In this document: positions 9,436 through 53,480 of the stretch, piece by piece
Layout: the number at the start of each line of letters is the position of its first letter
How positions within the stretch are numbered: position 1 is the stretch's first letter
Origin: Bacteroidota bacterium
GTDB lineage: Bacteria > Bacteroidota > Bacteroidia > Cytophagales > UBA9547
Direction: 5' to 3'
NCBI GenBank assembly: GCA_004293915.1
Contig: RDZG01000067.1
Location: forward strand, 9,401-73,400
Length of the DNA: 64,000 bases
Program-made: the position numbers and the translations under genes
The notes under the pieces: model-generated
What the model was told of the DNA's origin: nothing
Databases searched by the model: none
What the model saw: only the letters and a program-made list of their open reading frames with translations

Positions 9436-10317
9436 TTAATTTTCTTCATAATAATACGAATAATCAATACCTTTCATATACATTTCTCGGCTGAAAATGT
9501 CGTTGGTAAGTGCTGTTTTGAGTAGTGCATTCAAAACGCTACTATCTACTGCACTAATAATCATTGCGTTCATATAATTTTCTTTGCTAATTTTGCTCCA
9601 ATCAATACATCTTTTTAATTGTTTTTTTAGTAATAAATCAAGCCAAATTCTGGTACTTCTGCCATTGCCTTCCATAAATGGATGAGCTTTGTTCATTGCA
9701 ACATATTTTTCTACTATTTCATCAAAATTAGTTTCGGGCATATTGTCTATTTGCAGCAAAGTGCTTTTTAAATATTGTGCATACTCAAATCTATAGCCTC
9801 CTTTTGCAATATTTTTGGTTCTTATTTGCCCTGCAAAGTCATACAATCCTCCAAAAATATAGGCGTGTATTTGTTGTAAGCCATTAGCTGTACCTACTTC
9901 TATACTATCAAAAAAAGAAGTTTCAAATAGGGCATAGGCTTTGGTTTTACTTTTACCATCAATACTTTCTGGGCTGTAGGTAAACCATTCTATAAATCGG
10001 TTTGAATTTTTGCTGGGAAACTGTTTTCCTAATGCAATTATGCCCTCGTAATCGAGCATGTCTGTTAAATAGCGTTTGCCATCATTGGCAGCTAATTTCA
10101 GTTGGGTAGTGGCACTACCCAACTCACTATTTTCTTTTTTAAGTTTTGCTTTTAAATATTTCCAATAGTTTCGGTTTTTGTTGTAGTCATCTTGGTTTCG
10201 CAATACCGAAACTATATCCAACACCGAAAACCACCATTTGGCATTTTCCTCGTCCCAAACGGCACGTACCTCTCTGTCATCAAAGAAGCGAATAGATATA
10301 TTGGTATTAGATTTCAT
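9436..10317 (-). CDS. fic: Fic-domain protein with N-terminal Bro-N/RhuM-like module
   Basis: The Fic active-site motif is HPFMEGNGRSTR. The N-terminus IRFFDDREVRAVWDEENAKWWFSVLDIVSVL resembles Bro-N/RhuM-type modules. The first ATG is at 10317; the track starts at TTG 10323. Confidence 0.85.
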   Translation of the reverse strand: MKSNTNISIRFFDDREVRAVWDEENAKWWFSVLDIVSVLRNQDDYNKNRNYWKYLKAKLKKENSELGSATTQLKLAANDGKRYLTDMLDYEGIIALGKQFPSKNSNRFIEWFTYSPESIDGKSKTKAYALFETSFFDSIEVGTANGLQQIHAYIFGGLYDFAGQIRTKNIAKGGYRFEYAQYLKSTLLQIDNMPETNFDEIVEKYVAMNKAHPFMEGNGRSTRIWLDLLLKKQLKRCIDWSKISKENYMNAMIISAVDSSVLNALLKTALTNDIFSREMYMKGIDYSYYYEEN

Positions 10318-10394
10318 AGCCAATTTTAGAAATGTTCTTTGTTATGTTTTCGTCCCTTATTGGTTTTTGAATTTGTGCAGAAAGTGTTTGAATC

Positions 10395-11642: not shown

Positions 11643-14111
11643 TTAACCAATCTTTTTAGTAGGCTTCAACTGCTTTACATTAAAAAACCCAATCATTAAC
11701 ACTCCCGCAATCAAAAAGATAGAACACACAAACCCAATGATATTGCCTAAAACATATTTGTCGTTTACCATCTTAAAATGGATGGTATGTTCACCCGCAG
11801 GAACTTCCAAAGCTCGCAATACAAAATTTACTTGCTTGATCTCAGCCTCTTTTTCATCAATAGTAGCTGTCCAACCTTTAGGATAATAGACTTCTGAGAA
11901 AACTGCAAATCCAGGTTTAGCATTTGATGATTTATAAGTCAAATCATAAGGTTTATAATCTGTTAGGGTGATTATTGCGGTAGAATCTACTTCAAATTTA
12001 TCGGCACTTGATTTGAACTTAGAAATATCAATCACGGCTGTAGTTGCCGAATTAAAGGTTTCTAGCGCTTTTATTTCTTCTTCAGGATCATTAACTTGAT
12101 ATACATAAGGTACAAACCAAGCATTCCCCAAAGCATATTGATTGCTTAACACGGAATTGGCAGATTCTCCTGCCATAATATATCGGGTATTGAGCATATT
12201 TAGTACTGGAGTCTTATCGAAACCAGGCTCATTCTTTTTAAGATTTGTATACAAACCTTGAATTTCAGGATACATCACGCGTTCAACCAAATCTTGGTAC
12301 CTGCGCAATTTGGCTGGGCTATAGCCACCTACCGACTTATGAAAATACGAAGTACGAGATTCATTGAAAGGATTTTCCATATTCAATACACGATAATTTG
12401 GGTCTTTGTCTTCGAGCACATATAAATCTGCCTCGTTTGGTGTGTAGAAAGTCTGCATTACTTTTTTCTGAAAAAGGCTTTCATTCAAATACCTTTTATC
12501 AACACTCCATAAATCTACCAAAACAAGTAAGGCAATTGCTCCTAAAGCCAAGTTGTCTTTTAGTTTACTCTTCAAATAAAAATAAAGTATTGCACATACA
12601 AGGCCGATGAAAACAAATGCACGCAAAGCTTCACCAGTTCGCATTGCTTTTCGATCATCTGCAATAGCCCCAGTGATCCAATCAGGCAATTCAGAGCCTA
12701 ATTCTTGTTCGGTCAAGTAATTTACCGAACCAGCGGAAATAAACACAAGTGCTAAAATGCCACCAATCAGGCCTACAGCGATATATAGCGATTTCAACAA
12801 TGCTTCTTTCTTCTTTGCTAATAGCAATTGCTGTAAGCCAAGCATTCCCAATAATGACAAACAAAATTGTGGTATTACTACTGCCATAGTCACCGATCTG
12901 AACTTATTATAAATGGGGAAATAGTCAAATAGAAAATAATTTAAGAGTGGGAAATTTTTCCCGTAAGCCATCAAAATTCCAAAAACTGTTGCACCAAACA
13001 ATGCCCATTTGATTGGGTGCTTCACCACTACCATTCCCAAAATAAACAAAAACACAATAATATTTCCCATATACATAGGTCCGGCTACTCCAGGTTGATT
13101 ACCGAAATATGCAGGCAGATTGCTTAATATTTGATTAGGGTCATAGCCTTGTTTGCGCATTTCTTTCGCAACATTTTCATATTTATCAGGTGCATATCCG
13201 CTTGCTCCACCATAATAATCTGCCATAATGAAAGTAAATGGTTCATCTAATGAGTAGCTATAATTAAATACATAATCTTTATCTAATCCTTCTTTAGGCA
13301 CTTCCTTAGTATTTCCCTCCAATGGTTTTAAAATACTTTCGCCACGAATGGTGTATTTGCTGTATTCTTGGATAGATAAAAAATAGCCTGCATGTGTGCC
13401 TAAAGCTAATATTGCGGCTATGGATAATCCGATATTGGCTTTCATAAATGCTGGCAAGGTTTTGGTTTTGAGTACTTGTAGTAACTCAGCAATGAAATAC
13501 GCCAATCCGATAAATACCAAATAATAAGTAATTTGAACATGGTTGTTTACTATTTGTAGCGCAACCCCAATGCCAAATACTGAGGCACCCAATAGCCAAT
13601 TTTTGCGATAGGCAATAGCCATGCCGGCTATCACCAAGGGCATATACATCATGCAGGCTACTTTTGCATTGTGCCCAGCTACTAAGCTAATAAAAGTGAA
13701 ACTTGAAAAGCCAAATCCGATTGCCCCAATAATTGCCGCTATCCAATGCACATCGAAGGCCAATAGCATTGCATAAAAACAGATCATGCCGATCAAGACC
13801 AAACTTGGTGGATAACCTGGAAATCGACTGATATATTCGTGAATTGGCTTTATCAGATTGCCCCATTGTTGCATATTGATTAAGGTATTGGGCATGCCGC
13901 CAAACATGGCATTGGTCCAGAAAGGTTCTTCGTGAAATTTCTGACGGAAATCAATTATTTCTTTGGCCATGCCTTGGTATTGCACAATATCATGCACATT
14001 CATGGTCTTGCCCTGAAATACTAAAGGCGAGAAATAGATACTAATTAAGATAAAAAATATTGCAACAATGATAAAATGTGGCAGATAGGCTTTGAAATCG
14101 AATTTAGGCAT
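11643..14111 (-). CDS. YfhO-family polytopic membrane protein (putative glycosyltransferase)
   Basis: It is 822 aa with many TM helices and a large C-terminal extracytoplasmic domain. The N-terminus (SPLVFQGKTMNVHDIVQYQGMAKE, FWTNAMFGGMP) is typical of Bacteroidota YfhO proteins. Confidence 0.7.
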   Translation of the reverse strand: MPKFDFKAYLPHFIIVAIFFILISIYFSPLVFQGKTMNVHDIVQYQGMAKEIIDFRQKFHEEPFWTNAMFGGMPNTLINMQQWGNLIKPIHEYISRFPGYPPSLVLIGMICFYAMLLAFDVHWIAAIIGAIGFGFSSFTFISLVAGHNAKVACMMYMPLVIAGMAIAYRKNWLLGASVFGIGVALQIVNNHVQITYYLVFIGLAYFIAELLQVLKTKTLPAFMKANIGLSIAAILALGTHAGYFLSIQEYSKYTIRGESILKPLEGNTKEVPKEGLDKDYVFNYSYSLDEPFTFIMADYYGGASGYAPDKYENVAKEMRKQGYDPNQILSNLPAYFGNQPGVAGPMYMGNIIVFLFILGMVVVKHPIKWALFGATVFGILMAYGKNFPLLNYFLFDYFPIYNKFRSVTMAVVIPQFCLSLLGMLGLQQLLLAKKKEALLKSLYIAVGLIGGILALVFISAGSVNYLTEQELGSELPDWITGAIADDRKAMRTGEALRAFVFIGLVCAILYFYLKSKLKDNLALGAIALLVLVDLWSVDKRYLNESLFQKKVMQTFYTPNEADLYVLEDKDPNYRVLNMENPFNESRTSYFHKSVGGYSPAKLRRYQDLVERVMYPEIQGLYTNLKKNEPGFDKTPVLNMLNTRYIMAGESANSVLSNQYALGNAWFVPYVYQVNDPEEEIKALETFNSATTAVIDISKFKSSADKFEVDSTAIITLTDYKPYDLTYKSSNAKPGFAVFSEVYYPKGWTATIDEKEAEIKQVNFVLRALEVPAGEHTIHFKMVNDKYVLGNIIGFVCSIFLIAGVLMIGFFNVKQLKPTKKIG

Positions 14112-14184: not shown

Positions 14185-16458
14185 CTATTGAATATCTTCT
14201 TCGATAGTTCCCAACGTGTCGCCATTGATAAAAACCAAGCTATCGACTAAGGTTGAGTCTACTCTCGGTAAATACGTGCGGCAATTATGCGATTTTGTGA
14301 TTGGAAAATCTGCTTTAGGGAAATATCCCATTTTTATTCCAGTAGATTTGTCGCGATAAACTTTTTCCATAAACTTACCATAAATAGGCAATGCCGTTTT
14401 GGAACCTTCGCCATAAGCCGAAATCCTAAAATGCACACTGCGGTCGGCTGCTCCAACCCAAGCACCTGATACTAAGTCTTTTGTAATTCCCATAAACCAA
14501 CCATCTGAGTGATTTGATGAAGTTCCTGTTTTGCCACCAAACTCGTTGCCACGAAACAAATCGAAACCGAACAATGCTTGCGAAGTTCCACCTGGTTCTT
14601 CTAATCCGCCACGCAACATATAAAGCATCAACCATGCACTTTCTTCGCTTATGGCTCTGCGAGTAATTGGTTTGAATTCGGCAATTTTTCTGCCGCTATT
14701 GTCTTCTATTCGGGTAATAAAAATGGGTTCGGTATAAATTCCTTTATTCAAAAAAGTTCCATAAGCAGCTATAAGTTCATATAAAGAAACATCGCTGGAA
14801 CCTAATCCAACCGAAGGCACATCACGAAGTGGACTTTTGATGCCGCATTTTTTGGCGTATTTTATTACCGCATCCCAGCCCATTTTCTGAATCAATTGTG
14901 CCGTAACGGTATTAACAGATTTTCCCATTGCCCAACGCAAGGTCATGTCTTGCCCCGTAATTTTCCAATCCGAATTGCGTGGTTTCCACGTTTTTTTTAC
15001 TTTTATACCCGAGCTATCTTCTTCATAATCAATTTGTATGGCTTGATCTGTGATTTTATCACATGGTGAATATCCAAAACTATCAATGGCTGCTAAATAT
15101 ACAAATGGTTTAAATGTCGAACCCGGTTGGCGTTTGGATTGCACCACATGGTCGTACTGAAAATATTTATAATTTACACCACCAACCCAGGTTTTGATAT
15201 GTCCTTTAAATGGATCTAAAGTCATAAATCCAGCGTGTAAAAAATGTTTATAATAGCGTAAAGAATCGAAGGAATTAAAACAGGTATCTTTATCCCCATC
15301 CCAAGTAAAAACTCTCATTTTTTTAGGTCGAGTAAGATTTGCCCAAATACTATCTTTATTTCCATCAAATTTTAAATTATAACGTTTATAGGCTTCAGTT
15401 TTTTTAATTGCATCGTCTAAAAAACCTGCAATTTCTTTTTTATTTTCGTCTATCCACGGATTTTGTCCCTTCCAATGTCTAAAAAAACGAGCCTGTAATT
15501 CGCTCATTTGTTCGCTAACAGCCTCTTCGGCTAATTTTTGTAAACGGCTATCTAAAGTAGTATAAATTCGCAAACCATCGGCATACAAATCATAACCATT
15601 TACAGCACACCATTTATTTAAAAAGTTCTCAATCATAGTTCTAAAGTAAGTTCCTTGCCCTTCGTAGTGCATATGCATATCGACTTTAAGTTCGATTGGA
15701 ATCTTTTTAATCGAATCGGCTTGATTTTGAGTAATTATTTTATCTCTAGCCATGATATTTAAAACTGTATTTCTACGTTTTAAAGCATTTACAGGTCTCA
15801 CAAAAGGGCTGTATAATGTGGTGGCTTTCAAAACACCTACCAACATAGCAACTTCTTGAGTGTTTATGCTATCAGGTGATGTCGAAAAAAAAGTGTGCGT
15901 TGCGGTATTGATTCCATAAGCGGTATATCCAAAATCAACGGTATTGAGATACATGGTTATAATTTGCTGTTTATTGTAAACAGCTTCAAGTTTTACGGCA
16001 GTAATCCATTCTTTAAGTTTAAAAATAAATGTTTTAACACCAGGAATATACCCCAACAATCCTCTGGAAGTCGCACCACGTGTTTTGAATAAATTTTTTG
16101 CAAGTTGCTGTGTTATAGTACTTCCACCTCTTTTATCGCCTTTTAGTGCATAATAAAAAATAGAAATAGTTGCACCCCAATCGATGCCTTTGTGTTCGTA
16201 AAAATGAGCATCTTCGGTTGCAATAAGTGTTTTGATTAATAAAGGTGAAATTTTTTTGTATTCAACAGGAGTACGATTTTCTCTAAAATACCTACCAATG
16301 AGTTTTCCATCAGCAGTATAAACTTCAGAGGTAACATCCACTTCGGGTTTTTCGAGTTTATCAAAACTAGGAACTCTGCCAAACAACCATAAAAAATTAT
16401 GTTCGATTACCAGATATAAAAATATTAAACCACCAATAAAATATAAAAATTTACGCAA
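14185..16458 (-). CDS. mrcA: Class A penicillin-binding protein (transglycosylase + transpeptidase), PBP1A-like
   Basis: GT51 motifs are EDAHFYEHKGID and GGSTITQQLAKN. Transpeptidase motifs are STFKP (SxxK), SVN and KTGT. The start codon is TTG. Confidence 0.9.
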   Translation of the reverse strand: MRKFLYFIGGLIFLYLVIEHNFLWLFGRVPSFDKLEKPEVDVTSEVYTADGKLIGRYFRENRTPVEYKKISPLLIKTLIATEDAHFYEHKGIDWGATISIFYYALKGDKRGGSTITQQLAKNLFKTRGATSRGLLGYIPGVKTFIFKLKEWITAVKLEAVYNKQQIITMYLNTVDFGYTAYGINTATHTFFSTSPDSINTQEVAMLVGVLKATTLYSPFVRPVNALKRRNTVLNIMARDKIITQNQADSIKKIPIELKVDMHMHYEGQGTYFRTMIENFLNKWCAVNGYDLYADGLRIYTTLDSRLQKLAEEAVSEQMSELQARFFRHWKGQNPWIDENKKEIAGFLDDAIKKTEAYKRYNLKFDGNKDSIWANLTRPKKMRVFTWDGDKDTCFNSFDSLRYYKHFLHAGFMTLDPFKGHIKTWVGGVNYKYFQYDHVVQSKRQPGSTFKPFVYLAAIDSFGYSPCDKITDQAIQIDYEEDSSGIKVKKTWKPRNSDWKITGQDMTLRWAMGKSVNTVTAQLIQKMGWDAVIKYAKKCGIKSPLRDVPSVGLGSSDVSLYELIAAYGTFLNKGIYTEPIFITRIEDNSGRKIAEFKPITRRAISEESAWLMLYMLRGGLEEPGGTSQALFGFDLFRGNEFGGKTGTSSNHSDGWFMGITKDLVSGAWVGAADRSVHFRISAYGEGSKTALPIYGKFMEKVYRDKSTGIKMGYFPKADFPITKSHNCRTYLPRVDSTLVDSLVFINGDTLGTIEEDIQ

Positions 16459-35409: not shown

Positions 35410-36477
35410 TCAGATATGCGATATAGAATAAATTGTAGCTTTTAGATTCCCTCTTTTTACAATCATTTGATTTTGAGATAAATAACTCAAATCTTTTTTT
35501 AAACTGGCGGGATTCACATTTTTAAAGCTTTTGTTTATATCTGCAAATTTCATTGCTTTATTTTTTGTAATAAGTTGAATTATTTTTTTATGTCTTTCTG
35601 TCACATAAACAACTTTGTGTTTAATAGCCTCTAATTTTACTTGAAGTTTATCTGTCAGACTTTTTAAACTTGACATAAAAAACATCATCCATTCTTCCAT
35701 ATTTTCATCTTTTGTATTTCTATTTTTTTGCCCCGACATCAATGCTGCATAATATATTTCTTTATGAAGTTCAATGTGGTTTTCAAACGAAATATAATTA
35801 ATAAACCTATATTTTGATTTTAGCAAAAGCAAAGTTGTTAAAAGACGAGAAAGCCTTCCGTTTCCATCTTGAAATGGATGAATAGACAAAAATTCGTAAA
35901 CAAATACTCCTGTAATCAGCAATGGGTGCAGATTTTTGGTTTCAAACTCAATTGTTGTCCATTCAATTAAATCAAACATTTCGTTTGGTGTCAAATGAGG
36001 TGGAGTAGTTTTAAAAACGATTTTTTGTCTTCCATCTGGATAATTTGCAACCACGCTATTACTCAAAGATTTGTATCCTCCTTTGTGTTTTTGGTCTTTA
36101 TCGCTATGTTTCAACAATATTCCATGAAGTTGTTTAATTGTATTTTCTGAAAAACTAATTGTTTCATGATTTTCAAGAATAATATCTAAGGCATCGTAAT
36201 ATCCCATAACTTCTTGTTCGTCTCTGGTTTCGAGCGAGGTTATAGTCATATTATCAATCAATGTTTTAATTTCGGCATCTGTCATAACTGCACCCTCTAT
36301 GCGTGTTGAAGAACCGATACTTTGCACCGTTGCAATGCTTCTTAACTGAATCAAATCTTCTTTTTCTATTTTTTCAGCTTCTTCAATCGAAATTTCAAAT
36401 CCATCAATATAGTCAATGATTCTGTTAATCTCTTGATTTACAGAGTCATTAAATCTGATTTTATCTTTAACATCCAT
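35410..36477 (-). CDS. fic: Fic-family protein, class II architecture (N-terminal inhibitory helix, C-terminal wHTH-like tail)
   Basis: The Fic motif is HPFQDGNGRLSR. The N-terminal segment SSTRIEG matches the [ST]xxxE[GN] inhibitory motif. Confidence 0.85.
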   Translation of the reverse strand: MDVKDKIRFNDSVNQEINRIIDYIDGFEISIEEAEKIEKEDLIQLRSIATVQSIGSSTRIEGAVMTDAEIKTLIDNMTITSLETRDEQEVMGYYDALDIILENHETISFSENTIKQLHGILLKHSDKDQKHKGGYKSLSNSVVANYPDGRQKIVFKTTPPHLTPNEMFDLIEWTTIEFETKNLHPLLITGVFVYEFLSIHPFQDGNGRLSRLLTTLLLLKSKYRFINYISFENHIELHKEIYYAALMSGQKNRNTKDENMEEWMMFFMSSLKSLTDKLQVKLEAIKHKVVYVTERHKKIIQLITKNKAMKFADINKSFKNVNPASLKKDLSYLSQNQMIVKRGNLKATIYSISHI

Positions 36478-45160: not shown

Positions 45161-46390
45161 TTATAGTTTTGTGATTAAGCCTGTAATATAAAGCAATTTG
45201 ATATAGCTTTTTCGATATTCAAATTCGTTTCCAAAATAAAGTTTTTCGGTATCAAACCATGCTTTTTCAGCTTCCCACAAATCGACTTCAGAATCTTTTC
45301 CACTAACAAATTGATTTCTAACTTTTGTTACTAATTTATCGGCATCTGCAAGCATGCGAGCAACACGAATGCGATTGTTTTTTTGAACTTTATAGGTTTC
45401 TGCTGCGATTCTAATTTCTGATTTAATTTTATTAATAACATCATTTTCAATAACTTCTGAAGCAGCCAATTGCAGTTTTGATTTTTGCTTTTCGGCTTTG
45501 TTTACATCAAAAAAGGGTAAAGGTTGGGTATAAAACAATCCAAAATAAGGAATAGTGTTTTGTGGGTTTGCAATCAAACCAACTTCGGGAGTTGGATATG
45601 CTAATGAGTTTTGCAAATCAATATTAGAACGAGCCAATTTTGTTGCGTATTTAGATATCAACATATCTGGTCTGTTTTTTAATGCAATGGAAAAAAGCGA
45701 ATCCTCGTTTGTGATAAGTGTATCAGCAAAAAATCCGTCATTAAAATCAATCGAAATACTATCATTCGAACCTGTCAAATACCGAAGCTCTTCCAACTGA
45801 TTTTCATGCGTTTGGTTGGCTTTGGCATAATACAAATCATATTGATCATCCAAAATTTTGAAACGCAGCGATTCCATCGAACCTTCTGCAAAACTTTTAC
45901 GTCTTAACAAATCTTTTAGCGACTCAACGGCTTCGTCCGCCAAATTTTTATCAACTTGAGCATTCCATACTTCCAGCCAACTTGAGGCAACCTCCAAAAT
46001 CAAATCTCTTACATATTCTTGATTTTCGGATTCACGATTATTAAAAGATTGCTTTGCTACTTCAATTTTAGATTTTCGCTGCCCAGCTATTTGTAATCGC
46101 TTAGTAACTTGAAGCCAATCTTGCCTGTTGTATGGACTCAAAACTGGTGTTTTATCTGGAAAATCTTTTGTTCTACCCAACATTAAAATTTGGGCATTAA
46201 AAACTGGATTGGGTCTGATTTTAGACTTATCTATTTCTTTTTCAATAATTTTTAATCCAAATTCTCTGTTTTTAAGTTGTAGATTTCGCTCTATCGCTAA
46301 ATAAATAGATTTTTTAATTTGTTGGCGTGGTTGAGCAAACACATTTTGAATTATAAAAAAAAATAAAAAAAATAGATTTGTGAAACGCAT
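45161..46390 (-). CDS. TolC-family outer-membrane efflux protein
   Basis: It has a signal peptide (ATG 46390, MRFTNLFFLFFFIIQNVFAQ). The two-repeat helical/beta organisation typical of OEP family proteins is judged by eye. Confidence 0.65.
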   Translation of the reverse strand: MRFTNLFFLFFFIIQNVFAQPRQQIKKSIYLAIERNLQLKNREFGLKIIEKEIDKSKIRPNPVFNAQILMLGRTKDFPDKTPVLSPYNRQDWLQVTKRLQIAGQRKSKIEVAKQSFNNRESENQEYVRDLILEVASSWLEVWNAQVDKNLADEAVESLKDLLRRKSFAEGSMESLRFKILDDQYDLYYAKANQTHENQLEELRYLTGSNDSISIDFNDGFFADTLITNEDSLFSIALKNRPDMLISKYATKLARSNIDLQNSLAYPTPEVGLIANPQNTIPYFGLFYTQPLPFFDVNKAEKQKSKLQLAASEVIENDVINKIKSEIRIAAETYKVQKNNRIRVARMLADADKLVTKVRNQFVSGKDSEVDLWEAEKAWFDTEKLYFGNEFEYRKSYIKLLYITGLITKL

Positions 46391-46567
46391 CAAAAACTCA
46401 AAAACAAATTAAACCATTTGTTTGCTATAAAAAAAACATAACCCACAACTTAAAATAATTTGTTGCGATTTTTAATTGGATTTTAACTTATTTACTTAAT
46501 AATTCAACAAATACTAAAGCGTTTTTCAAAAACTTCTTTTCGATGAAAATTTAGATATTTTTTGCGA

Positions 46568-46686
46568 TTCTGCCTTTCTGCCTTTGTTGGAGTTCTTCTC
46601 CAACAAGTTACTAAAGATTTATTTTCTTATTTGATTAGTTCTTAATTTCTATGTTTGTTGGTCAAGAAGACCAACAAAGGCGAAAA
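46568..46686 (+). repeat. Cassette-boundary repeat, copy 1 (119 bp)
   Basis: The left palindrome GTTGGAG-TTCTT-CTCCAAC is at 46586-46604. The right palindrome GTTGGTC-AAGAA-GACCAAC is at 46657-46675. The outer 11-mers gcctttgttgg / ccaacaaaggc are inverted. An 8-bp unit CTGCCTTT is duplicated at 46570-46585. Confidence 0.9.
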
Positions 46687-46710
46687 TACTTCAAAAGATT
46701 CAGAAAATAA

Positions 46711-46965
46711 TCACTTTATGAGTCTTTCATATTCTTGATGATTTCCAATCCAAAACCAAACTATATTTTCTTCAATTTCAATTCCTAATGCCCTGTATTC
46801 TAAACCTACTCTAACAGATCTATAATTCTTTACTTTTTTATAGTGAAGCGAAGGATGGGATGAATTAACTTTCAGGATTTCAAAATTTTTGTCTGCTATT
46901 TTTTGAATTTCAGGAGGTAAAGTATTGTATGCATCCCAAAACGAAGAAGAAGCAAAATGTTTCAC
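46711..46965 (-). CDS. ParE-like / RelE-superfamily type II toxin
   Basis: FWDAYNTLPPEIQKIADKNFEILKVNSSHPSLHYKKV....YRALGIEIEENIVWFWIGNHQEYERLI matches the ParE-like toxin pattern. Its GTG start overlaps the antitoxin stop (GTGA). Confidence 0.7.
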   Translation of the reverse strand: MKHFASSSFWDAYNTLPPEIQKIADKNFEILKVNSSHPSLHYKKVKNYRSVRVGLEYRALGIEIEENIVWFWIGNHQEYERLIK

Positions 46966-47162
46966 AGTGCTTTCGCTTTATTTTGTTTTAACTCTTCCAA
47001 TGCCATAGCTGCTAAATTGTCAAATTTATTATTTTTGATGTCTAATTCTAATTTTTTATCCCATTGTAGATAATCAAAATCATAAAACCAATTTCTGAAC
47101 AACAAATAATCTTCTTTAGATAATTGAGCAACCGTTTGCTCAGCTTTTAATAACGTTTTCAT
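46962..47162 (-). CDS. Cognate antitoxin (66 aa)
   Basis: It is a small acidic/helical protein immediately upstream of the toxin, with a 4-bp overlap. Confidence 0.6.
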   Translation of the reverse strand: MKTLLKAEQTVAQLSKEDYLLFRNWFYDFDYLQWDKKLELDIKNNKFDNLAAMALEELKQNKAKAL

Positions 47163-47216
47163 TTGCTAAAAAACATTTAATATACCAAAAATAGGAAATT
47201 TTATTAATAATGGTAA

Positions 47217-47233
47217 TTAAAATTATAGTTTTG
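47217..47233 (-). promoter_or_regulatory. Conserved 17-mer upstream of TA module A (candidate promoter element)
   Basis: ttaaaattatagttttg is identical to 48028-48044. On the gene strand it reads caaaacTATAATTTTAa. It lies 55-71 bp upstream of the antitoxin ATG. Confidence 0.25.
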
Positions 47234-47354
47234 ATGCAAAATAGAATAACAAAGGGATATGTCAGAATTTATTTACTATAAAATGGTAAATTTTTCATCC
47301 AGTAGATTTCTTGTTGATTAATAGAAAGTGTTAAATCATGCAAAGACTTTTTTA

Positions 47355-47465
47355 TTCTGCCCTTGTTGGAGTTCTTCTCCAACAAGCTACTAAAGATATA
47401 TTTTCTCTTTTGATAAGTTATTGAATACAATGTTTGTTGGTCAAGAAGACATAAAAATGTGAAAA
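47355..47465 (+). repeat. Cassette-boundary repeat, copy 2 (111 bp)
   Basis: The left palindrome is intact at 47365-47383. The right palindrome is GTTGGTC-AAGAA-GAC at 47436-47450, and its distal arm has then diverged (ataaaaatg instead of caacaaagg). Confidence 0.9.
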
Positions 47466-47493
47466 AAAATGTATATTAAATTTCAAAAAACTA

Positions 47494-47751
47494 CTATTTA
47501 TATATTTCTTTTCTATGACCAACTGAAACTATTCTTATTAAAAGTTGGTTGCCGTGTACATCATAAATAATTCTATAAACACCAACTCTTATTCTGTATG
47601 TAAACTCTGTTCCTTTTAGTTTTATTGAACCCACGGGAAATGGATTATATTGAAGTAAATCTATCGTTTCGACAATTTTTATTTGATATTGTTTTGGTAG
47701 CTTTAGAAGATTTTTTGATGCGCTTCTGTCAATCTCAATAGAATAAATCAT
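47494..47751 (-). CDS. RelE/ParE-family type II toxin
   Basis: It is 85 aa: IEIDRSASKNLLKLPKQYQIKIVETIDLLQYNPFP.GSIKLKG....YRIRVGVYRIIYDV..NQLLIRIVSVGHRKEIY. This is the classic RelE/StbE pattern. Confidence 0.8.
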   Translation of the reverse strand: MIYSIEIDRSASKNLLKLPKQYQIKIVETIDLLQYNPFPVGSIKLKGTEFTYRIRVGVYRIIYDVHGNQLLIRIVSVGHRKEIYK

Positions 47752-47954
47752 TATTTCAATTTCAATTTCAATTTCAATGATTTTGTTTTGAATTCATCCC
47801 AACCAATAAAATCGTTTTTTTTGCGTACTGATTCTACTTCAATCATGTCCAAAAAATCTTCTAAATGACTACCCCATTTTTCTATGTTAATAGTGATTGA
47901 TTTTAACTTTCCCGAATCTGACCTATGTTCTTTTATGCCTGCTATTCTTGCCAT
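47751..47954 (-). CDS. Antitoxin (MARIAGI-type N-terminus)
   Basis: The ATG at 47954 is preferred over the TTG at 47978. Its stop overlaps the toxin ATG (TAATG). The C-terminal KLKLKLK is encoded by a hexanucleotide repeat. Confidence 0.65.
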   Translation of the reverse strand: MARIAGIKEHRSDSGKLKSITINIEKWGSHLEDFLDMIEVESVRKKNDFIGWDEFKTKSLKLKLKLK

Positions 47955-48027
47955 TACAATAGTATTTGTTTGTAACAAATATACTAAAAATAAAAAAATC
48001 TAAATATAAAAAGTAAACTTTGACATT

Positions 48028-48044
48028 TTAAAATTATAGTTTTG
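48028..48044 (-). promoter_or_regulatory. Conserved 17-mer upstream of TA module B (candidate promoter element)
   Basis: It is identical to 47217-47233 and lies 74-90 bp upstream of the antitoxin ATG at 47954. Confidence 0.25.
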
Positions 48045-48073
48045 GAAGTTTTTGTTTGGAAAGTGAAACTATT

Positions 48074-48184
48074 TTCTGCCCTTATTTAAGTTCTTCTCCA
48101 ACAAGCTACTAAAGATATATTTTCTCTTTTGATAAGTTCTTAATTACAATGTTTGTTGGTCAAGAAGACCAACAAAGGCGAAAA
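48074..48184 (+). repeat. Cassette-boundary repeat, copy 3 (111 bp)
   Basis: The outer arm of the left palindrome has diverged (ATTTAAG-TTCTT-CTCCAAC, 48084-48102). The right palindrome is intact at 48155-48173. Confidence 0.9.
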
Positions 48185-48349
48185 ATAGTTCCTACCCTTA
48201 ATTTTGGTAGAGAACTTAAAAGATTGGCTAAAAAGCATCGTTCAATTAAAGCAGATATTGACAAACTTGGCAAACAGTTAGAAGTAAACCCAACTATGGG
48301 TGATGCAGAAATAGAACAAATATGTGGGCTTTTTCTGTTTATAATGTAG
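48185..48349 (+). pseudogene. Truncated RelE/ParE-family toxin remnant
   Basis: IVPTLNFGRELKRLAKKHRSIKADIDKLGKQLEVNPTMGDAE resembles the N-terminal ~45 aa of Bacteroidota RelE/ParE toxins, then the similarity breaks off. The track ORF 48149..48349 gets its ATG from inside the repeat. Confidence 0.5.
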
Positions 48350-48444
48350 TCGGAGACTACAATTTATTTACTAATCCGTAGTGCCGCTTTGCGAACACGG
48401 ATATTGGATTAACAATTACCGATTCAATCTTCGCTTAACGGGGG

Positions 48445-49185
48445 TTAAAAACCATTAATATATTTTGTTAATAAATCTTTTTTAAAATCTATTGAAAAAG
48501 ATTCAATCAATTCATTTAAGTGAGATTCAGGTGAATATTTATCTAAAAATTCTTTTTTCAAAATTGTTTTAATTTTAATAATTTTGATTTCATCTTTTGC
48601 TCTTCGACTTCTATCATAATCATCTGCCATAGAATAACAAGAATAAAACCCACTATCCCCATAAGTTTTTTCTGCAAAAGAAGGATTGATTTTTTTTAGG
48701 TAAGGATCTTCACTTTGAGGGTAACTCGAAATAATCATAGCAAAAAAACTATCATCTTCGCCAAACTTCTTAGTCATTTGAGTAATAATTTTAGCATTAA
48801 TAAGCCTAGAATAAGTTTCTGAATCAAAATTCAAAACAATATTATTTGCTTTAATAGATATTTCGTGAATATTTGAAAGTAGTTTATCAGAAATCAATCG
48901 TTCAAAAGCGTCAGGGAATTTATTTATTAGATATTTGTTTTCGTTAGGGTCAAATTTACCAAAGTATGAAATTACATTATCATTAGTTAAATGAATAAAG
49001 TCATCCAACATGATTTTTTCTGATGATAAGTTAAGACTTGGTATTATGTTAATCAATATAATGTCATCTTTTTTAAAATTTATAAATGTTGAGTTAAAAA
49101 GATATTCTTTTTCATTAATTTTTATAGATCCAAATTTTTTATTCGTGAAAAAAAAAGTTATAGTGCCAATTTTTTTGTTAGTCAT
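48445..49185 (-). CDS. Hypothetical protein (246 aa) with weakly cold-shock-domain-like N-terminus
   Basis: Track ORF. GTITFFFTNKKFGSIKINEKEYLF is reminiscent of the CSD pattern GTVKWFN..KGFGFI. The rest is unrecognised. Confidence 0.5.
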   Translation of the reverse strand: MTNKKIGTITFFFTNKKFGSIKINEKEYLFNSTFINFKKDDIILINIIPSLNLSSEKIMLDDFIHLTNDNVISYFGKFDPNENKYLINKFPDAFERLISDKLLSNIHEISIKANNIVLNFDSETYSRLINAKIITQMTKKFGEDDSFFAMIISSYPQSEDPYLKKINPSFAEKTYGDSGFYSCYSMADDYDRSRRAKDEIKIIKIKTILKKEFLDKYSPESHLNELIESFSIDFKKDLLTKYINGF

Positions 49186-49274
49186 AAAATATTATTAATC
49201 AAATAAATTCAACACAATTGTTGTGAAACTTATAATATACTAAATATTTAAAAGCGTACTTATATGTACAAGAA

Positions 49275-49565
49275 CTAAACCGTAATTTGAATTTCTTTTA
49301 GTCTTAAAACATTAGTTTTAAATAATGGACCACCATTTATGGATATTTTTTTGTTAAATATGGCTACAACTTCTACATCTTCTTGAAAAAATAACTTACT
49401 AATTTCTTCAGAAGAATAAGTCCGGAAATATTCTTTCATGAAAAGTTCATTTGACTCTGAATTTGTTGGGATAATTGCTATTTCATCTATTCTTGCTCCA
49501 TTTTCATATTTTCCTAAAAGATGTAAGTTTTTGTCTTTTAAATTCAATGCTTTTTGATATTCCAT
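49275..49565 (-). CDS. Hypothetical protein (96 aa)
   Basis: Track ORF with an ATG start, on the same strand as its neighbours. I recognise no motif. Confidence 0.45.
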   Translation of the reverse strand: MEYQKALNLKDKNLHLLGKYENGARIDEIAIIPTNSESNELFMKEYFRTYSSEEISKLFFQEDVEVVAIFNKKISINGGPLFKTNVLRLKEIQITV

Positions 49566-49710
49566 TTATTAGTGTAATTAAGTTTTAGTTTTTAAAATTC
49601 AACTATTCAATATCCATTATCTCAAACCACTATATCATATAATTCCTAACAATGGCTTATACCACCAGTCTGTGTTTTGTGTATCTCAAGCAAAAGAATT
49701 AGTAAATGGA

Positions 49711-50415
49711 TTAAATATCTAATTTTGATTTGTTCAATTCTTGATTTGTTTTGATATTGTTTTGATTTTTCAAAATATCAGCGAGTTCGTTTTTATCTAA
49801 ATAATACTTGATATTCTTCTTTTCGATGTCAATTTCACAAAAGTATTTATGAGAATCATTAGATTTTATTTCCCATTTAGTTAATTTCTCATTTTGAAAA
49901 ACTGGGACTCCGTACTTTTCTTTATATATTTTCACGATAGGGTCTAATTCACTTTTGTTTATGTTTGGATGTATGTAACCAACTACATTTATACCACAAA
50001 GAACAGACTCCCATCCTTCTTTGTAGATTTCAATTTTTATTTCAATCAATTTAAAAGTATCTGATATAGTTTCAAAATATTCATGAAAATACCCATCAAT
50101 ATCACCATAAAAATTATAGCTGTAGCCATATTCAACGCCATTTCCTGAATAGTCAAAATCGCAATTCCTTGTGGTTATCTCAATAGATCCGTCTGAACGA
50201 TGATAATAAGCTGCAATTTTATTTGATTCTAAAAGTGTGTTTATATGTTTGTCATAATCTTCTTTCGACATTAATAGCCAAAAATCTAAAAATATTCTTT
50301 CATTATTTGAGTTAGAATTTGTAACATATACAGAATTTTCGGTATGTGTATTGTTTTTATTACATGAAATGAAACATACCACAAGTAATAATGTAATATT
50401 AAAATTCACTTTCAT
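49711..50415 (-). CDS. Putative lipoprotein (234 aa), unknown function
   Basis: ATG 50415 gives MKVNFNITLLLVVCFISCNK, a signal peptide with a lipobox-like FISC. The track start at 50448 is a TTG that abuts repeat copy 4. Confidence 0.55.
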   Translation of the reverse strand: MKVNFNITLLLVVCFISCNKNNTHTENSVYVTNSNSNNERIFLDFWLLMSKEDYDKHINTLLESNKIAAYYHRSDGSIEITTRNCDFDYSGNGVEYGYSYNFYGDIDGYFHEYFETISDTFKLIEIKIEIYKEGWESVLCGINVVGYIHPNINKSELDPIVKIYKEKYGVPVFQNEKLTKWEIKSNDSHKYFCEIDIEKKNIKYYLDKNELADILKNQNNIKTNQELNKSKLDI

Positions 50416-50460
50416 TAGTTTTAATTTAATTTCAATTCTATTAATCAAACATTTTGCGAT

Positions 50461-50570
50461 TTCTGCCCATCTTGGAGTTATTCTCCAACAAGCAACTAAA
50501 CATACATTTTCTTTTTTGATAAGTTCTTAATTACAATGTTTGTTGGTCAAGAAGACCAACAAAGGCGAAA
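50461..50570 (+). repeat. Cassette-boundary repeat, copy 4 (110 bp)
   Basis: The left palindrome variant CTTGGAG-TTATT-CTCCAAC is at 50471-50489. The right palindrome is intact at 50542-50560. It shares the extra upstream motif attttgcgatt with copy 1. Confidence 0.9.
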
Positions 50571-50595
50571 TATTTCTGTAATCCTGATTTTATGT

Positions 50596-50688
50596 TTAGG
50601 CTTCCAACTCCGTAGTTTTGATAGCAAAATAGGCTAAACCAATGATTCCGCCAATTATTAAAACTCCTACTACGATTAAAGGTAACAT
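50596..50688 (-). CDS. Possible 30-aa single-TM peptide
   Basis: My own translation is MLPLIVVGVLIIGGIIGLAYFAIKTTELEA. Its ATG lies 1 nt after the stop of the 79-aa gene (TAAAATG). Confidence 0.3.
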   Translation of the reverse strand: MLPLIVVGVLIIGGIIGLAYFAIKTTELEA

Positions 50689-50689
50689 T

Positions 50690-50929
50690 TTAGTTTAATT
50701 TTAAAATATTTTTACTAATAATTTGATTGAATATTACCAAAATACTCAATACTACAAACCATAATAATATTACAACTATCAATAAAACAGACTCATATAG
50801 AGATATTTGCCATTGATTTCTTGATATAACTATACCAATCGCACCCGTATCCAATACTAACAATGTGCAAAACAATTTAAACCATTCGTTCAATTGTTTT
50901 ATTTTTTCTTTTACTTGGTCGTTAGTCAC
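50690..50929 (-). CDS. Small membrane protein (79 aa, two predicted TM helices)
   Basis: Track ORF. The hydrophobic stretches are LFCTLLVLDTGAIGIVI and VLLIVVILLWFVVLSILVIF. Confidence 0.5.
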   Translation of the reverse strand: MTNDQVKEKIKQLNEWFKLFCTLLVLDTGAIGIVISRNQWQISLYESVLLIVVILLWFVVLSILVIFNQIISKNILKLN

Positions 50930-51065
50930 TATACAAATTTAATGAATTAAATTTATTTATCAATAATGTATTTCAAATTCCAATCCCGAAATTTTAAACC
51001 ATAATCCCAAAAAAGGCTCACATCCATGCAAACCTTTTTTAAATTTAAGATTAAAACACATTTTT

Positions 51066-53480
51066 TTACGACCCACAAGCCTCGCATCCTTCTGGATTAT
51101 CGAGCGAACAAGCTAAATCGGCAAGTTTTTGCTCTGTGCTTGTTACTGGAATTAAAGCTGGCTCGGCTTGTTTTTCTACTGTGAACTTTACAGCATCGGC
51201 AGCAGCAGTTGTTCTCAAGTAGTACATACCTGTTTTTAAGCCTTTTTTCCAAGCATAAAAGTGCATTGAAGTCATTTTTCCGAAATTTGGCTCGGTCATA
51301 TAAATATTCAAACTTTGGCTTTGGCAAATAAACGCACCCCTATCCGCACTCATATCTATGATAGTTTTTTGTTTAATTTCCCAAACTGTTTTATAAATAT
51401 CTTTGATGTTTTGAGGAATTTCTTTGATGTTTTGTACCGAACCATTGGCTGTCATCAATTTGTTTTTGATGCTATCGTTCCAAAGGTTTAGTTTTATCAA
51501 ATCTTTTAGTAAATGTTTGTTTACCACTGCAAATGCACCCGAAAGAACTTCTCGTTTATAAATATTTGAAGTATATGGTTCAAAACTTTCATTATTTCCC
51601 AATATTTGAGCTGTAGATGCAGTTGGCATTGGAGCCAAAAGCAACGAATTGCGAACGCCATGTTTTTTAACATCTTTGCGAAGTGTATCCCAATCCCAGC
51701 GACCAGAGTTTGGTGTAACTCCCCACATATCGAATTGGAAAATTCCTTTCGATACAGGCGAACCTTTTATGGTTTCGTACGGACCATTTTTGATTGCCAA
51801 ATCTTTTGAAGCTGTCATAGCAGCAAAATAAATGGTTTCAAAAATATCTTTATTAAGTCCTTGAGCTTCAGGCGATTCAAACGGCATACGCAACATAATA
51901 AACGCATCAGCCAAACCTTGAACACCTATTCCAATCGGACGATGACGCATATTTGAATTGCGTGCTTCTTCTACTGGATAATAATTTATATCAATAATCT
52001 TATTCAAATTTTTGGTTACATGATACGTTACATCATATAATTTTTGATGATCGAATTTTCCATCAATTACATATTTTGGCAATGCTATCGAAGCCAAATT
52101 ACACACCGCAACTTCGTCTGGCGATGTATATTCCATAATTTCTGTACACAAGTTTGAAGATTTGATGGTACCCAAATTTTTCTGATTCGATTTTTTATTG
52201 GCAGCATCTTTATACAACATATAAGGTGTGCCTGTTTCTATTTGAGATTCCACAATTTCAAACCACAAATCTTGTGCTTTTACTTGTTTGCGGTATCTGC
52301 CTTCACGTTCGTATTTTTCGTATAATTTCACAAAATCATCGCCATAAGCTTCGGCTAAACCTGGTGCTTCGTTTGGACAAAACAACGACCAAACATCATT
52401 ATCTTCCACACGTTTCATAAACAAATCGGGAGTCCAAAGTGCATAAAACAAATCTCTTGCACGCATTTCTTCTTTTCCATGATTCTTTTTGAGTTGTAAA
52501 AACTCAAAAATATCGGCATGCCATGGTTCCAAATATACTGCAAATGCACCTTTACGTTTGCCACCACCTTGATCTACATATCTTGCTGTGTCGTTAAACA
52601 CACGCAACATCGGGATAATACCATTTGAGGTACCATTTGTACCTTTGATATACGAGCCAGTTGCTCTAATATTATGAATACTCAAACCAATTCCACCTGC
52701 TGATTGCGAAATTTTTGCACATTGTTTTAATGTATCATAAATGCCTTCTATACTGTCTTTTTGCATCGTAAGCAAAAAGCAAGAAGACAATTGAGCTTTA
52801 GGCGTACCTGCATTAAATAATGTTGGTGTGGCATGTGTAAACCATTTTTCTGACATCAAATTGTAAGTTTCTACAACCGACTCTAAATCATCGCCATGCA
52901 CACCAACAGCCACACGCATTAGCATGTGTTGCGGACGCTCAACTATTTTACCATCTAATTTTAATAAATACGATTTTTCTAAGGTTTTAAAACCAAAATA
53001 ATCATAATTAAAATCTCTCTCATATATAATACTCGAATCTAATAAAGCAGCATTTTTACGGATTACTTCATACGTTTCTTTTGATAAAAGCGAAGCATTT
53101 TCTCCAGTTTTGGGATCTTCGTATGTATAAAGTCTTTTCATCGTATTTGTAAAAGACTTGCTTGTAAGTTTATGCAAATTAGAAACCGCAATGCGAGCCG
53201 CTAAAATGGCATAATCTGGATGACGAGTAGTAAGCGAAGCGGCTATTTCAGCAGCCAAGTTATCTAATTCCTGTGTAGAAATTCCATCATATATACCTGT
53301 AATTACCTTACGAGAAATTTCAATTGGATCTACAAAATTCATATCCAAACCATAACAAAGTCGTTCGATTCGAGCTGTAATTTTGTCGAATTTAACAGAT
53401 TCCTTACGACCATCTCGTTTGATAACGAGCATTGTTTTTTGGATATTTAATGTGGTTTGTTGATTTTCTGTTGCAACCAT
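51066..53480 (-). CDS. nrdA: Class Ia ribonucleoside-diphosphate reductase, alpha subunit
   Basis: It has an N-terminal ATP-cone ([16 protein letters not shown]), the catalytic segments SSCFL and NLCTEI, and a C-terminal CxxC tail (CEACGS). Confidence 0.95.

Follow-up and report, generated by a model that had tools for sequence, protein, structure and literature searches.

Four co-oriented copies of a 114-nt structured repeat, found between a gene for an OEP/TolC-family outer-membrane protein and nrdA in a genome of the Cytophagales, are likely to be REPIN-type doublets (REPIN, REP doublet forming a hairpin) of a repetitive extragenic palindrome (REP) family that is tied in Bacteroidota to REP-associated tyrosine transposases (RAYTs) of subclass 2.6. 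The copies lie in a 64,000-nt stretch of contig RDZG01000067.1 (positions 9,401 to 73,400 of the forward strand; Bacteroidota bacterium, UBA9547, assembly GCA_004293915.1), the whole of which is called the window here and is numbered from its first letter. The identification rests on the family to which the repeated unit belongs, on the flanking of RAYT genes by the same unit in other genomes, and on a hairpin given by Quentin et al. for a Runella RAYT. A preliminary description, made from the letters of the sequence, had proposed an integron- or dif-module-like array in which the repeats delimit gene cassettes; this label is replaced here by a specific and testable one, the doublet form of the REP family of Bacteroidota RAYT subclass 2.6.

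A repeat search resolved the family in the window into four gap-free 114-nt copies, all in plus orientation, at 46575..46688 (c1), 47354..47467 (c2), 48073..48186 (c3) and 50460..50573 (c4), and no further copy in the rest of the 64 kb. The coordinates in the preliminary description were off by only 1-7 nt. The copies were 89-91% identical to the reference copy and 84-91% identical pairwise, close to the 85-90% that had been judged by eye. Since their alignment is gap-free, the two palindromes are spaced 71 bp from centre to centre in all four copies, as had been reported. With up to three mismatches allowed, the 64 kb contained each 23-nt palindrome four times, always inside the repeats, and 100 shuffles contained none, so the repeats are a specific structured element beyond chance, as the preliminary description had held. 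Inwards from either outer edge, a copy reads GCC and one base that varies, followed by TTGTTGG-NN-TTCTT-NN-CCAACAA, in which the two NN positions are complementary, and by a base that pairs with the variable one; the left end has the AG..CT stem variant and the right end the TC..GA variant. Because both ends read alike, the 114-nt element amounts to a single hairpin unit present twice in inverted orientation, its GCC feet facing outward, with a 48-nt spacer between the units and a pyrimidine-rich stretch preceding each of them.

The state of the hairpins differed between copies. Both are intact in c1, where the left unit is GCC-T-TTGTTGGAG-TTCTT-CTCCAACAA and the right unit is the inverse of GCC-T-TTGTTGGTC-TTCTT-GACCAACAA-A. 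The claim that every copy carries both palindromes stood for c1 and failed for the other three: the left hairpin of c2 is intact and the right one degenerate (GTTGGTCAAGAAGACATAA), the left hairpin of c3 is degenerate (ATTTAAG..CTCCAAC) and the right one intact, and in c4 the left hairpin is weakened (CTTGGAGTTATTCTCCAAC) and the right one intact. The two ends of a copy are able to pair with each other, as had been suggested, through long-range arms of 32 nt that are 81% complementary and 48 nt apart; the folded element shows symmetric 2x2 mismatches and a 48-nt loop that is largely unpaired, and folding of the copies as single-stranded DNA (ssDNA) gave z = -3 to -6 relative to shuffles on both strands. 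The inverted symmetry of c3 reaches 9 nt further outward on both sides (48067-48190). Copy 1, which had been placed at 46568-46686, owed its extra length relative to the other copies to a tandem duplication of the left foot, CTGCCTTT-CTGCCTTT (8 nt), at about 46570-46585. Outside the left end, c1, c4 and the copy of the closest relative in NCBI (GCA_004294265.1, called L120 below) have in common a further ~10 nt (TTTTGCGATT) that are not present in c2 or c3.

The hairpin unit belongs to a family that is dispersed over Bacteroidota. A scan for TTGTTGGWSWWSWWSWCCAACAA over one genome per species of GTDB gave at least 119 loci, about 9 being estimated by chance, and all counts of units, contexts and RAYT genes in other genomes given here derive from these listed loci. 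Among the matches listed, almost all came from Cytophagales, Chitinophagales, Sphingobacteriales or unclassified Bacteroidota; a match from Massilia was not a palindrome. A tolerant search of the listed loci yielded 213 oriented units, 175 of which (82%) carried a 5' GCC at positions -4 to -2, with a pyrimidine-rich stretch before it and no matching GGC on the 3' side. Three positions of the stem covaried. The closing pair was T-A in 65 units, C-G in 63, G-C in 55 and A-T in 6 (89% Watson-Crick, with three types nearly equal), and the inner variable pairs were TG..CA in 163, TC..GA in 25 and AG..CT in 5; the units in the window are the last two variants of this family. A stem that is kept by compensatory change, together with a one-sided foot, is the anatomy of a REP and not of a protein-binding palindrome. 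The hairpin TTGTTGGTG-TTCTT-CACCAACAA was nearly invariant over several Bacteroidota orders and one Ignavibacteriae metagenome-assembled genome (MAG), varying only at the three compensated stem pairs. Such conservation across orders is unusual for REPs, since those of proteobacteria are lineage-specific. Some MAGs bearing the names Bifidobacterium or Asaia also had units, on contigs (L006, L033, L055 and L107) that are probably mis-binned; L006 and L107 are A+T-rich by eye.

Neighbouring units were mostly convergent, with GCC outward, and their spacing showed two modes, 73-137 bp (doublets) and 595-656 bp, so that the doublet architecture recurs outside the window; single units occurred as well. 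Nearly all REP sites (146 of 152, 96%) lay outside long open reading frames (ORFs), and the 150 nearest ORFs matched 113 Pfam families of ordinary genes, among them RbfA, thioesterases, AraC and TetR regulators, amidohydrolases, sigma factors and response regulators; no toxin-antitoxin (TA) family was present in the 25 listed of these 113. The units faced either way relative to their neighbouring genes. Carrying genomes could hold many of them: units were seen on at least 8 contigs of Chryseosolibacter histidini, and Chryseolinea serpens had 4 loci, spread over three contigs. REP-like dispersal behind ordinary genes, which the preliminary description had itself set against a cassette array, was thus what was found (at least 119 loci, 146 of 152 sites extragenic, 113 Pfam families). 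In three loci (L043 3590-3956, L109 1700-1817 and L098 2949-3034) the units formed tandem arrays with a period of ~47-165 bp in which the inter-unit sequence was repeated too, a higher-order arrangement other than doublets.

The second spacing mode reflects the link between the unit and its enzyme in other genomes. Unit pairs 595-656 bp apart flank one ORF of ~153-170 aa that matched Pfam Y1_Tnp at 1.5e-6 and NCBIfam NF047646 REP_Tyr_transpos (REP-associated tyrosine transposase) at 1e-20. A profile of seven of the enclosed proteins, in which FVIMxNHxHLIWQ and YIHxNPV...YxYSSA are conserved, found Escherichia coli TnpA_REP (4ER8) with E = 1.6e-5, over the HuH and Y motifs; the profile was needed, as a search of PDB with a single RAYT sequence gave no match. 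By tblastn, the RAYT gene was present in ~25 of the listed loci, and at least 10 full-length genes had a '+' unit to the left and a '-' unit to the right within ~110 bp, whichever way the gene was directed. The preliminary description had suggested looking for a recombinase adjacent to other copies of the repeat. A tyrosine enzyme does co-occur with them; it is a HUH/Y1 RAYT flanked by inverted units, and not IntI or XerC/D. According to Quentin et al. 2018 (PMC6006769), TnpA_REP subclass 2.6 corresponds to RAYT group 5 of Bertels et al. 2017, is characterised by NH[LIV]H and YIH[QN]NP motifs and a length of ~179 aa, occurs mostly in Bacteroidetes, and is flanked by 'atypical secondary structures' that contain no GT[AG]G and are found again at other places in the genome; Additional file 2 of that paper gives GCCGTTGTTGGTGTTATCACCAACAACC beside a Runella RAYT. 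The text of the papers searched did not contain the exact 23-mer.

Taken with the family to which they belong, the repeats in the window probably serve as substrate for a tyrosine-using enzyme that is encoded elsewhere. The unit on which it would act is ~35 nt long; its 5' foot is rich in pyrimidines and closes with GCC, and its stem of 11 bp carries a loop of 5 nt. The putative cognate enzyme is a RAYT of TnpA_REP subclass 2.6, a HUH/Y1 single-strand DNA transposase. By analogy with E. coli TnpA_REP and with IS200/IS605, such a RAYT would bind single-stranded DNA at the folded hairpin and, on the same analogy, would cut at the foot, whereby units could be copied or moved in trans. The sequences themselves show to which family the unit belongs, how the doublets are built, that the unit goes with RAYT genes in other genomes, and that the locus varies. 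We infer mobilisation by a RAYT that is present now or was once present in this genome; the doublets may also have a role in local rearrangement. The copies diverge from each other (84-91% identity) about as much as from a copy of another lineage (82-85%), and we infer that all four are old insertions that were tolerated in a dispensable islet. They would have accumulated there, 3' of nrdA, among TA and orphan genes that are non-essential and horizontally exchanged, and, being extragenic insertions, they would mark the module borders of the islet. Their feet and their 114 bp of homology would probably make the doublets preferred points of rearrangement, a role that is possible. The shared orientation of the copies could have arisen from a strand bias of single-strand transposition or from local duplication.

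Several observations weigh against this identification. No RAYT homologue was found in the 64-kb window by tblastn. All four copies lie inside 4 kb, with none in the other 60 kb, and are thus clustered, unlike the even scatter of an active REPIN population; at 84-91% identity they bear no sign of recent transposition. In related strains the 114-nt doublet type was found only 3' of nrdA (the window, L120/L126, L127 and L129), and a spacer-specific pattern, CCAACAAGNNACTAAANATNNATTTTCT, had 0 matches in JGI metagenomes. The NF047646 scores of the enclosed proteins, 71-74 bits, fall under the equivalog cutoff of 80. Activity of a subclass 2.6 RAYT on hairpins with a GCC foot would follow from analogy with related enzymes. 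Dispersed copies are a property of the family as a whole; here, four clustered copies are visible in the window and two loci (L085 and L120) in the MAG of the nearest relative. There, the second doublet (L085) has an unrelated spacer and lies on another contig, between ordinary membrane-protein genes.

An integron or Xer origin would require the repeats to be non-canonical attC sites without an integrase (a cluster of attC sites lacking integron-integrases, CALIN) or Xer dif modules, with a recombinase encoded elsewhere moving the TA modules, and this is extremely unlikely. The resemblance is real in outline: the copies are co-oriented and lie close behind toxin genes, with a gap from the toxin stop codon of 22 nt at c1 and 26 nt at c2 (25-29 bp had been stated), the cargo consists of TA modules, strains differ at the locus, and the long hairpin with its two 2x2 mismatches and large loop is loosely like the R box, spacer, L box and variable loop of attC. 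On both strands, all four copies lack an exact RYYYAAC or GTTRRRY box, and their outer boxes are GTTGG...CCAAC, the reverse of the GTT/AAC order of attC; on this point the preliminary description, which had called the architecture non-canonical, was right. An inner L''/L' pair with extrahelical bases is missing, the 48-nt spacer having no second pair of complementary boxes. Half-sites, that is, single units, are common in other genomes, where the family sits beside ordinary genes, and the enzyme linked to it is a RAYT and not IntI or Xer. No recombinase or integrase domain was detected in the 20 window ORFs of 270-430 aa, the size range scanned.

Xer modules fared no better. The pdif modules alternate in site orientation, and their 28-bp sites consist of a XerC arm, a 6-nt spacer and a XerD arm (11-6-11); in the window a 5-nt loop lies between the arms, and the four copies share one orientation. 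No Xer arms were found in the repeats, and XerD-arm-like matches were only A+T-rich chance hits outside them. Nor does the block of the first TA module (TA-A) that is shared with a relative fill the space between two repeats, as a cassette of the kind supposed in the preliminary description would: its 5' edge is 136 bp from c2. The integron- or dif-like cassette array was accordingly rejected, given a unit that occurs singly and in pairs in the at least 119 Bacteroidota loci and is linked to RAYTs, the missing core boxes, and relatives that are as variable at this locus without any doublet. Two other identities were also dismissed. A miniature inverted-repeat element of a DDE transposon would have the inverted ends that are present here, but reading of the flanks revealed no target-site duplication at any of the four copies; and in a CRISPR array the 'spacers' would not be repeated, as those between units are, for example in L043.

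The content of the region 3' of nrdA varies among relatives, as had been expected of this locus, with TA genes among the cargo. The nrdA gene places the window in an A+T-rich lineage of Cytophagales with 31% G+C, whose closest relatives have NrdA proteins only 90-95% identical, and the strain-level comparison for this reason rests on short Logan contigs (L126-L129; runs SRR7244350, SRR12360575, SRR7244338 and SRR12360546). In L120 (nrdA 94% identical in amino acids and 84% in nucleotides), nrdA is followed by a 209-aa ORF, a hicB-like remnant, TA-A, 140 bp, one doublet of the window type, a 45-bp flank and hicB. The TA-A block of the window (46684-47218) is 97.4% identical in nucleotides to L120 13334-13871, and, against the 84% of nrdA, this looks like recent horizontal exchange of the TA-A module. 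Copy c4 with its 45-bp distal flank (50415-50459) matches the single L120 doublet at 85% over 158 nt and, judged from this similarity, looks like its positional counterpart. The exact TA-A toxin protein was present on 6 contigs, five of them shorter than 2 kb. In L120, the hicB-like remnant (13106-13286) and the intact hicB-like gene (14211-14391) are 81% identical over ~180 nt and bracket TA-A, the 140 bp and the doublet, which suggests an insertion or duplication event between them.

Between a point within c2 and the end of TA-A, the 916-bp contig L127 matches the window at 100% identity. In the window TA-A is followed directly by c1, in L127 by the 140-bp segment and then a doublet of the L120 type; the TA-A, 140-bp segment and doublet of L127 are ~94-97% identical to those of L120. 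Contig L129 is from the same species as L120 (nrdA 98.3% identical in nucleotides) and has only 245 bp from nrdA to the doublet. L127 starts and L129 ends inside a doublet, consistent with a multi-copy repeat breaking short-read assembly. Other relatives have no doublet at this place: a restriction-modification cluster lies 3' of nrdA in L121-L123, and small orphan ORFs in L124 and L130. Because these doublet-free relatives are equally variable, the region 3' of nrdA is an accessory hotspot with or without doublets.

Whether the doublets also drive this modularity was considered next to their identification as REP doublets as such. They could do so as parts of a RAYT composite single-strand transposon, or as 114-bp stretches of portable RecA homology used in excision, reinsertion and capture of incoming DNA, and we regard either as unlikely. 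Similarity breaks within ~4 nt or less of the GGTC-side foot (TTT|TCGCC) in three comparisons: the window (TA-A, c1) against L127 (TA-A, 140 bp, doublet), where the preceding 701 bp are 100% identical; c4 against L120; and L129 against L120. Such breakpoints are expected for the end of an inserted element anyway, and from the aligned sequences they are compatible as well with foot- or homology-directed rearrangement. The segment from TA-A to the doublet is ~94-97% identical between L127 and L120, compared with 84% for nrdA between the window and L120; the L120 order of TA-A, doublet and c4-type flank makes the window order a circular permutation, and RAYT genes themselves lie between inverted units. 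Set against this, the 5' edge of the TA-A block that is 136 bp from c2 adjoins no repeat in L120, a simple deletion between GTATTT microhomologies could account for the 140-bp difference, the doublet-free relatives are just as variable, and a handful of short contigs is the basis of the comparison. The stronger version, in which co-oriented doublets are the ends of gene modules that are excised and reinserted by a RAYT or by homologous recombination, and thus form a REP-based cassette system that spreads TA modules, is distinctly unlikely.

Host functions could also account for some properties of the hairpins. These might be kept for a role in RNA or DNA, such as termination or stabilisation of TA transcripts or binding of a host protein, and their mobility would then not matter. 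Conservation of the hairpin sequence reaches across orders, with covariation that keeps its stem, the repeats lie directly 3' of toxin genes, and a scan for terminator-like sites flagged the GGTC hairpins of c3 and c4 on the gene-sense strand (5 sites compared with 0.7 expected). REPs of E. coli stabilise mRNA and bind IHF and gyrase. The stems in the window are A+T-rich, however, the scan did not flag c1 and c2, and several of the hairpins are already degenerate; elsewhere, the units occur in either orientation to neighbouring genes, and termination explains neither the one-sided GCC foot nor the flanking of RAYT genes. A purely host-serving element therefore has very little probability, and a canonical intrinsic terminator as the main role was rejected in view of the weak stems and one-sided foot. 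A side role of the c3 and c4 GGTC hairpins in transcript 3' ends is possible.

The gene content between the OEP/TolC-like gene and nrdA was as previously described, with two TA modules, a three-gene block and two tiny membrane ORFs. The islet is bordered on the left by the outer-membrane protein gene (45161..46393, minus strand) and on the right by nrdA (51066..53480, minus strand), which encodes the class I ribonucleotide reductase alpha subunit, is accompanied by nrdB and served to anchor the comparison of relatives. TA-A comprises an 84-aa ParE_like toxin (46711..46965) and a 66-aa antitoxin without a family match (46962..47162), the toxin gene lying within the shared block 46684-47218, and TA-B an 85-aa toxin that matched the ParE_toxin / RelE_StbE families (47494..47751) and a 75-aa antitoxin candidate without a family match (47751..47978), all on the minus strand. 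The block of three ORFs (246, 96 and 245 aa; 48445..50448, minus strand) had no Pfam match at threshold; its 245-aa ORF has a lipoprotein-like N-terminus if the start is at 50415. Two tiny hydrophobic ORFs of 30 aa (50596-50688) and 79 aa (50690-50929), both on the minus strand, lie between c4 and nrdA. At its right edge, c3 meets the start of a small reading frame, IVPTLNFGRELKRLAKKHRSIKADIDKLGKQLEVNPTMGDA... (48185..48310, plus strand), which runs opposite to all neighbouring genes; by reading alone this frame is like the N-terminal part of a RelE/ParE-type toxin, with no family match. Neither the three-ORF block, nor either antitoxin, nor this toxin-like fragment was matched in PADLOC or NCBIfam.

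The surroundings held some further features. A G+C-richer stretch 3' of the 246-aa ORF (48320-48440) contains the hairpins GTAGTC..GACTAC, CCGT..ACGG and TTAAC-CCCC-GTTAA and had no Rfam match; over the region 46000-51200, the Rfam scan, taken to E <= 10, gave chance matches only (E > 2). The 58 nt between the OEP gene and c1 (46515-46572) are 84% identical to the 3' end of an HNH gene in L121 (16266-16323), which belongs to the restriction-modification cluster 3' of nrdA there, and may be a remnant of earlier islet content. The window has one tRNA, far from the islet. Two Fic/DOC-domain proteins are encoded on the minus strand, one at 9436-10323, which also carries Bro-N and matched the PADLOC candidate PDC-S04 at 1e-154, and one at 35410-36477, which matched SoFic at 1e-40; either gene may serve in defence or as a toxin.

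Subclass 2.6 had been barely characterised, its hairpins having been called 'atypical' and found by hand. A usable definition is now available, consisting of the pyrimidine-rich stretch and GCC foot, a stem of 11 bp in which three pairs covary, the loop TTCTT, and the doublet and RAYT-flanking spacings. For annotation, this means that such repeats should not be labelled attC sites or CALINs, and that they can interrupt short-read assemblies, as in L127 and L129. The location of TA modules and orphan genes between old doublets, with some breakpoints at the feet, raises the question of whether REP doublets help to assemble small accessory islets; if they do, REP-based module shuffling would be a functional parallel to integrons that is built on a HUH transposase.

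Among known systems, the REPINs and RAYTs of Bertels & Rainey 2011 (PMC3116915) and the REP sequences and bacterial interspersed mosaic elements (BIMEs) of E. coli with TnpA_REP (4ER8) are like the repeats of the window in having two inverted hairpins with a short spacer, ~110 nt in all, that can form one long hairpin. They share with the Bacteroidota family a conserved one-sided 5' foot, an extragenic position, many copies per carrying genome, and a single-copy HUH/Y1 transposase gene flanked by inverted units. The foot differs, being pyrimidine-rich and then GCC here and GTAG or CGTC in REPINs and REPs. Unlike in those elements, the two units of a window doublet are different compensated stem variants (GGAG/CTCC and GGTC/GACC), and for this reason the local hairpins are perfect whereas the long hairpin has two 2x2 mismatches. 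The present hairpin is also near-constant over several Bacteroidota orders, where each proteobacterial REP keeps to its lineage, and the window copies are clustered and old, with no RAYT in the window. Subclass 2.6 as described by Quentin et al. 2018 (PMC6006769) agrees with the RAYTs found here in its motifs (NH[IMF]H and YIHxNP in the present set), in length (~170 aa) and in its occurrence in Bacteroidota. The Runella hairpin in the supplement of that paper, GCC-G-TTGTTGGTG-TTAT-CACCAACAA-C, is the same hairpin, from which the window copies differ by other stem variants and the TTCTT loop; unit doublets, covariation and conservation across orders are not described in the main-text passages searched.

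Integron attC sites and CALINs resemble the window repeats in being structured repeats of ~60-140 nt that lie co-oriented 3' of short, promoterless-looking genes, carry TA cargo and fold as single strands; they are unlike them in that the present family has no core boxes, a reversed GTT/AAC order, no extrahelical bases and no IntI, and occurs as half-sites and beside ordinary neighbours. IS200/IS605 elements and their miniature derivatives, the palindrome-associated transposable elements (PATEs), likewise rely on ssDNA hairpins that are recognised by a Y1 transposase and make no target-site duplication. Their ends, however, are two different hairpins in direct orientation around a cargo, whereas the two hairpins of the present doublets are inverted and enclose only 48 nt.

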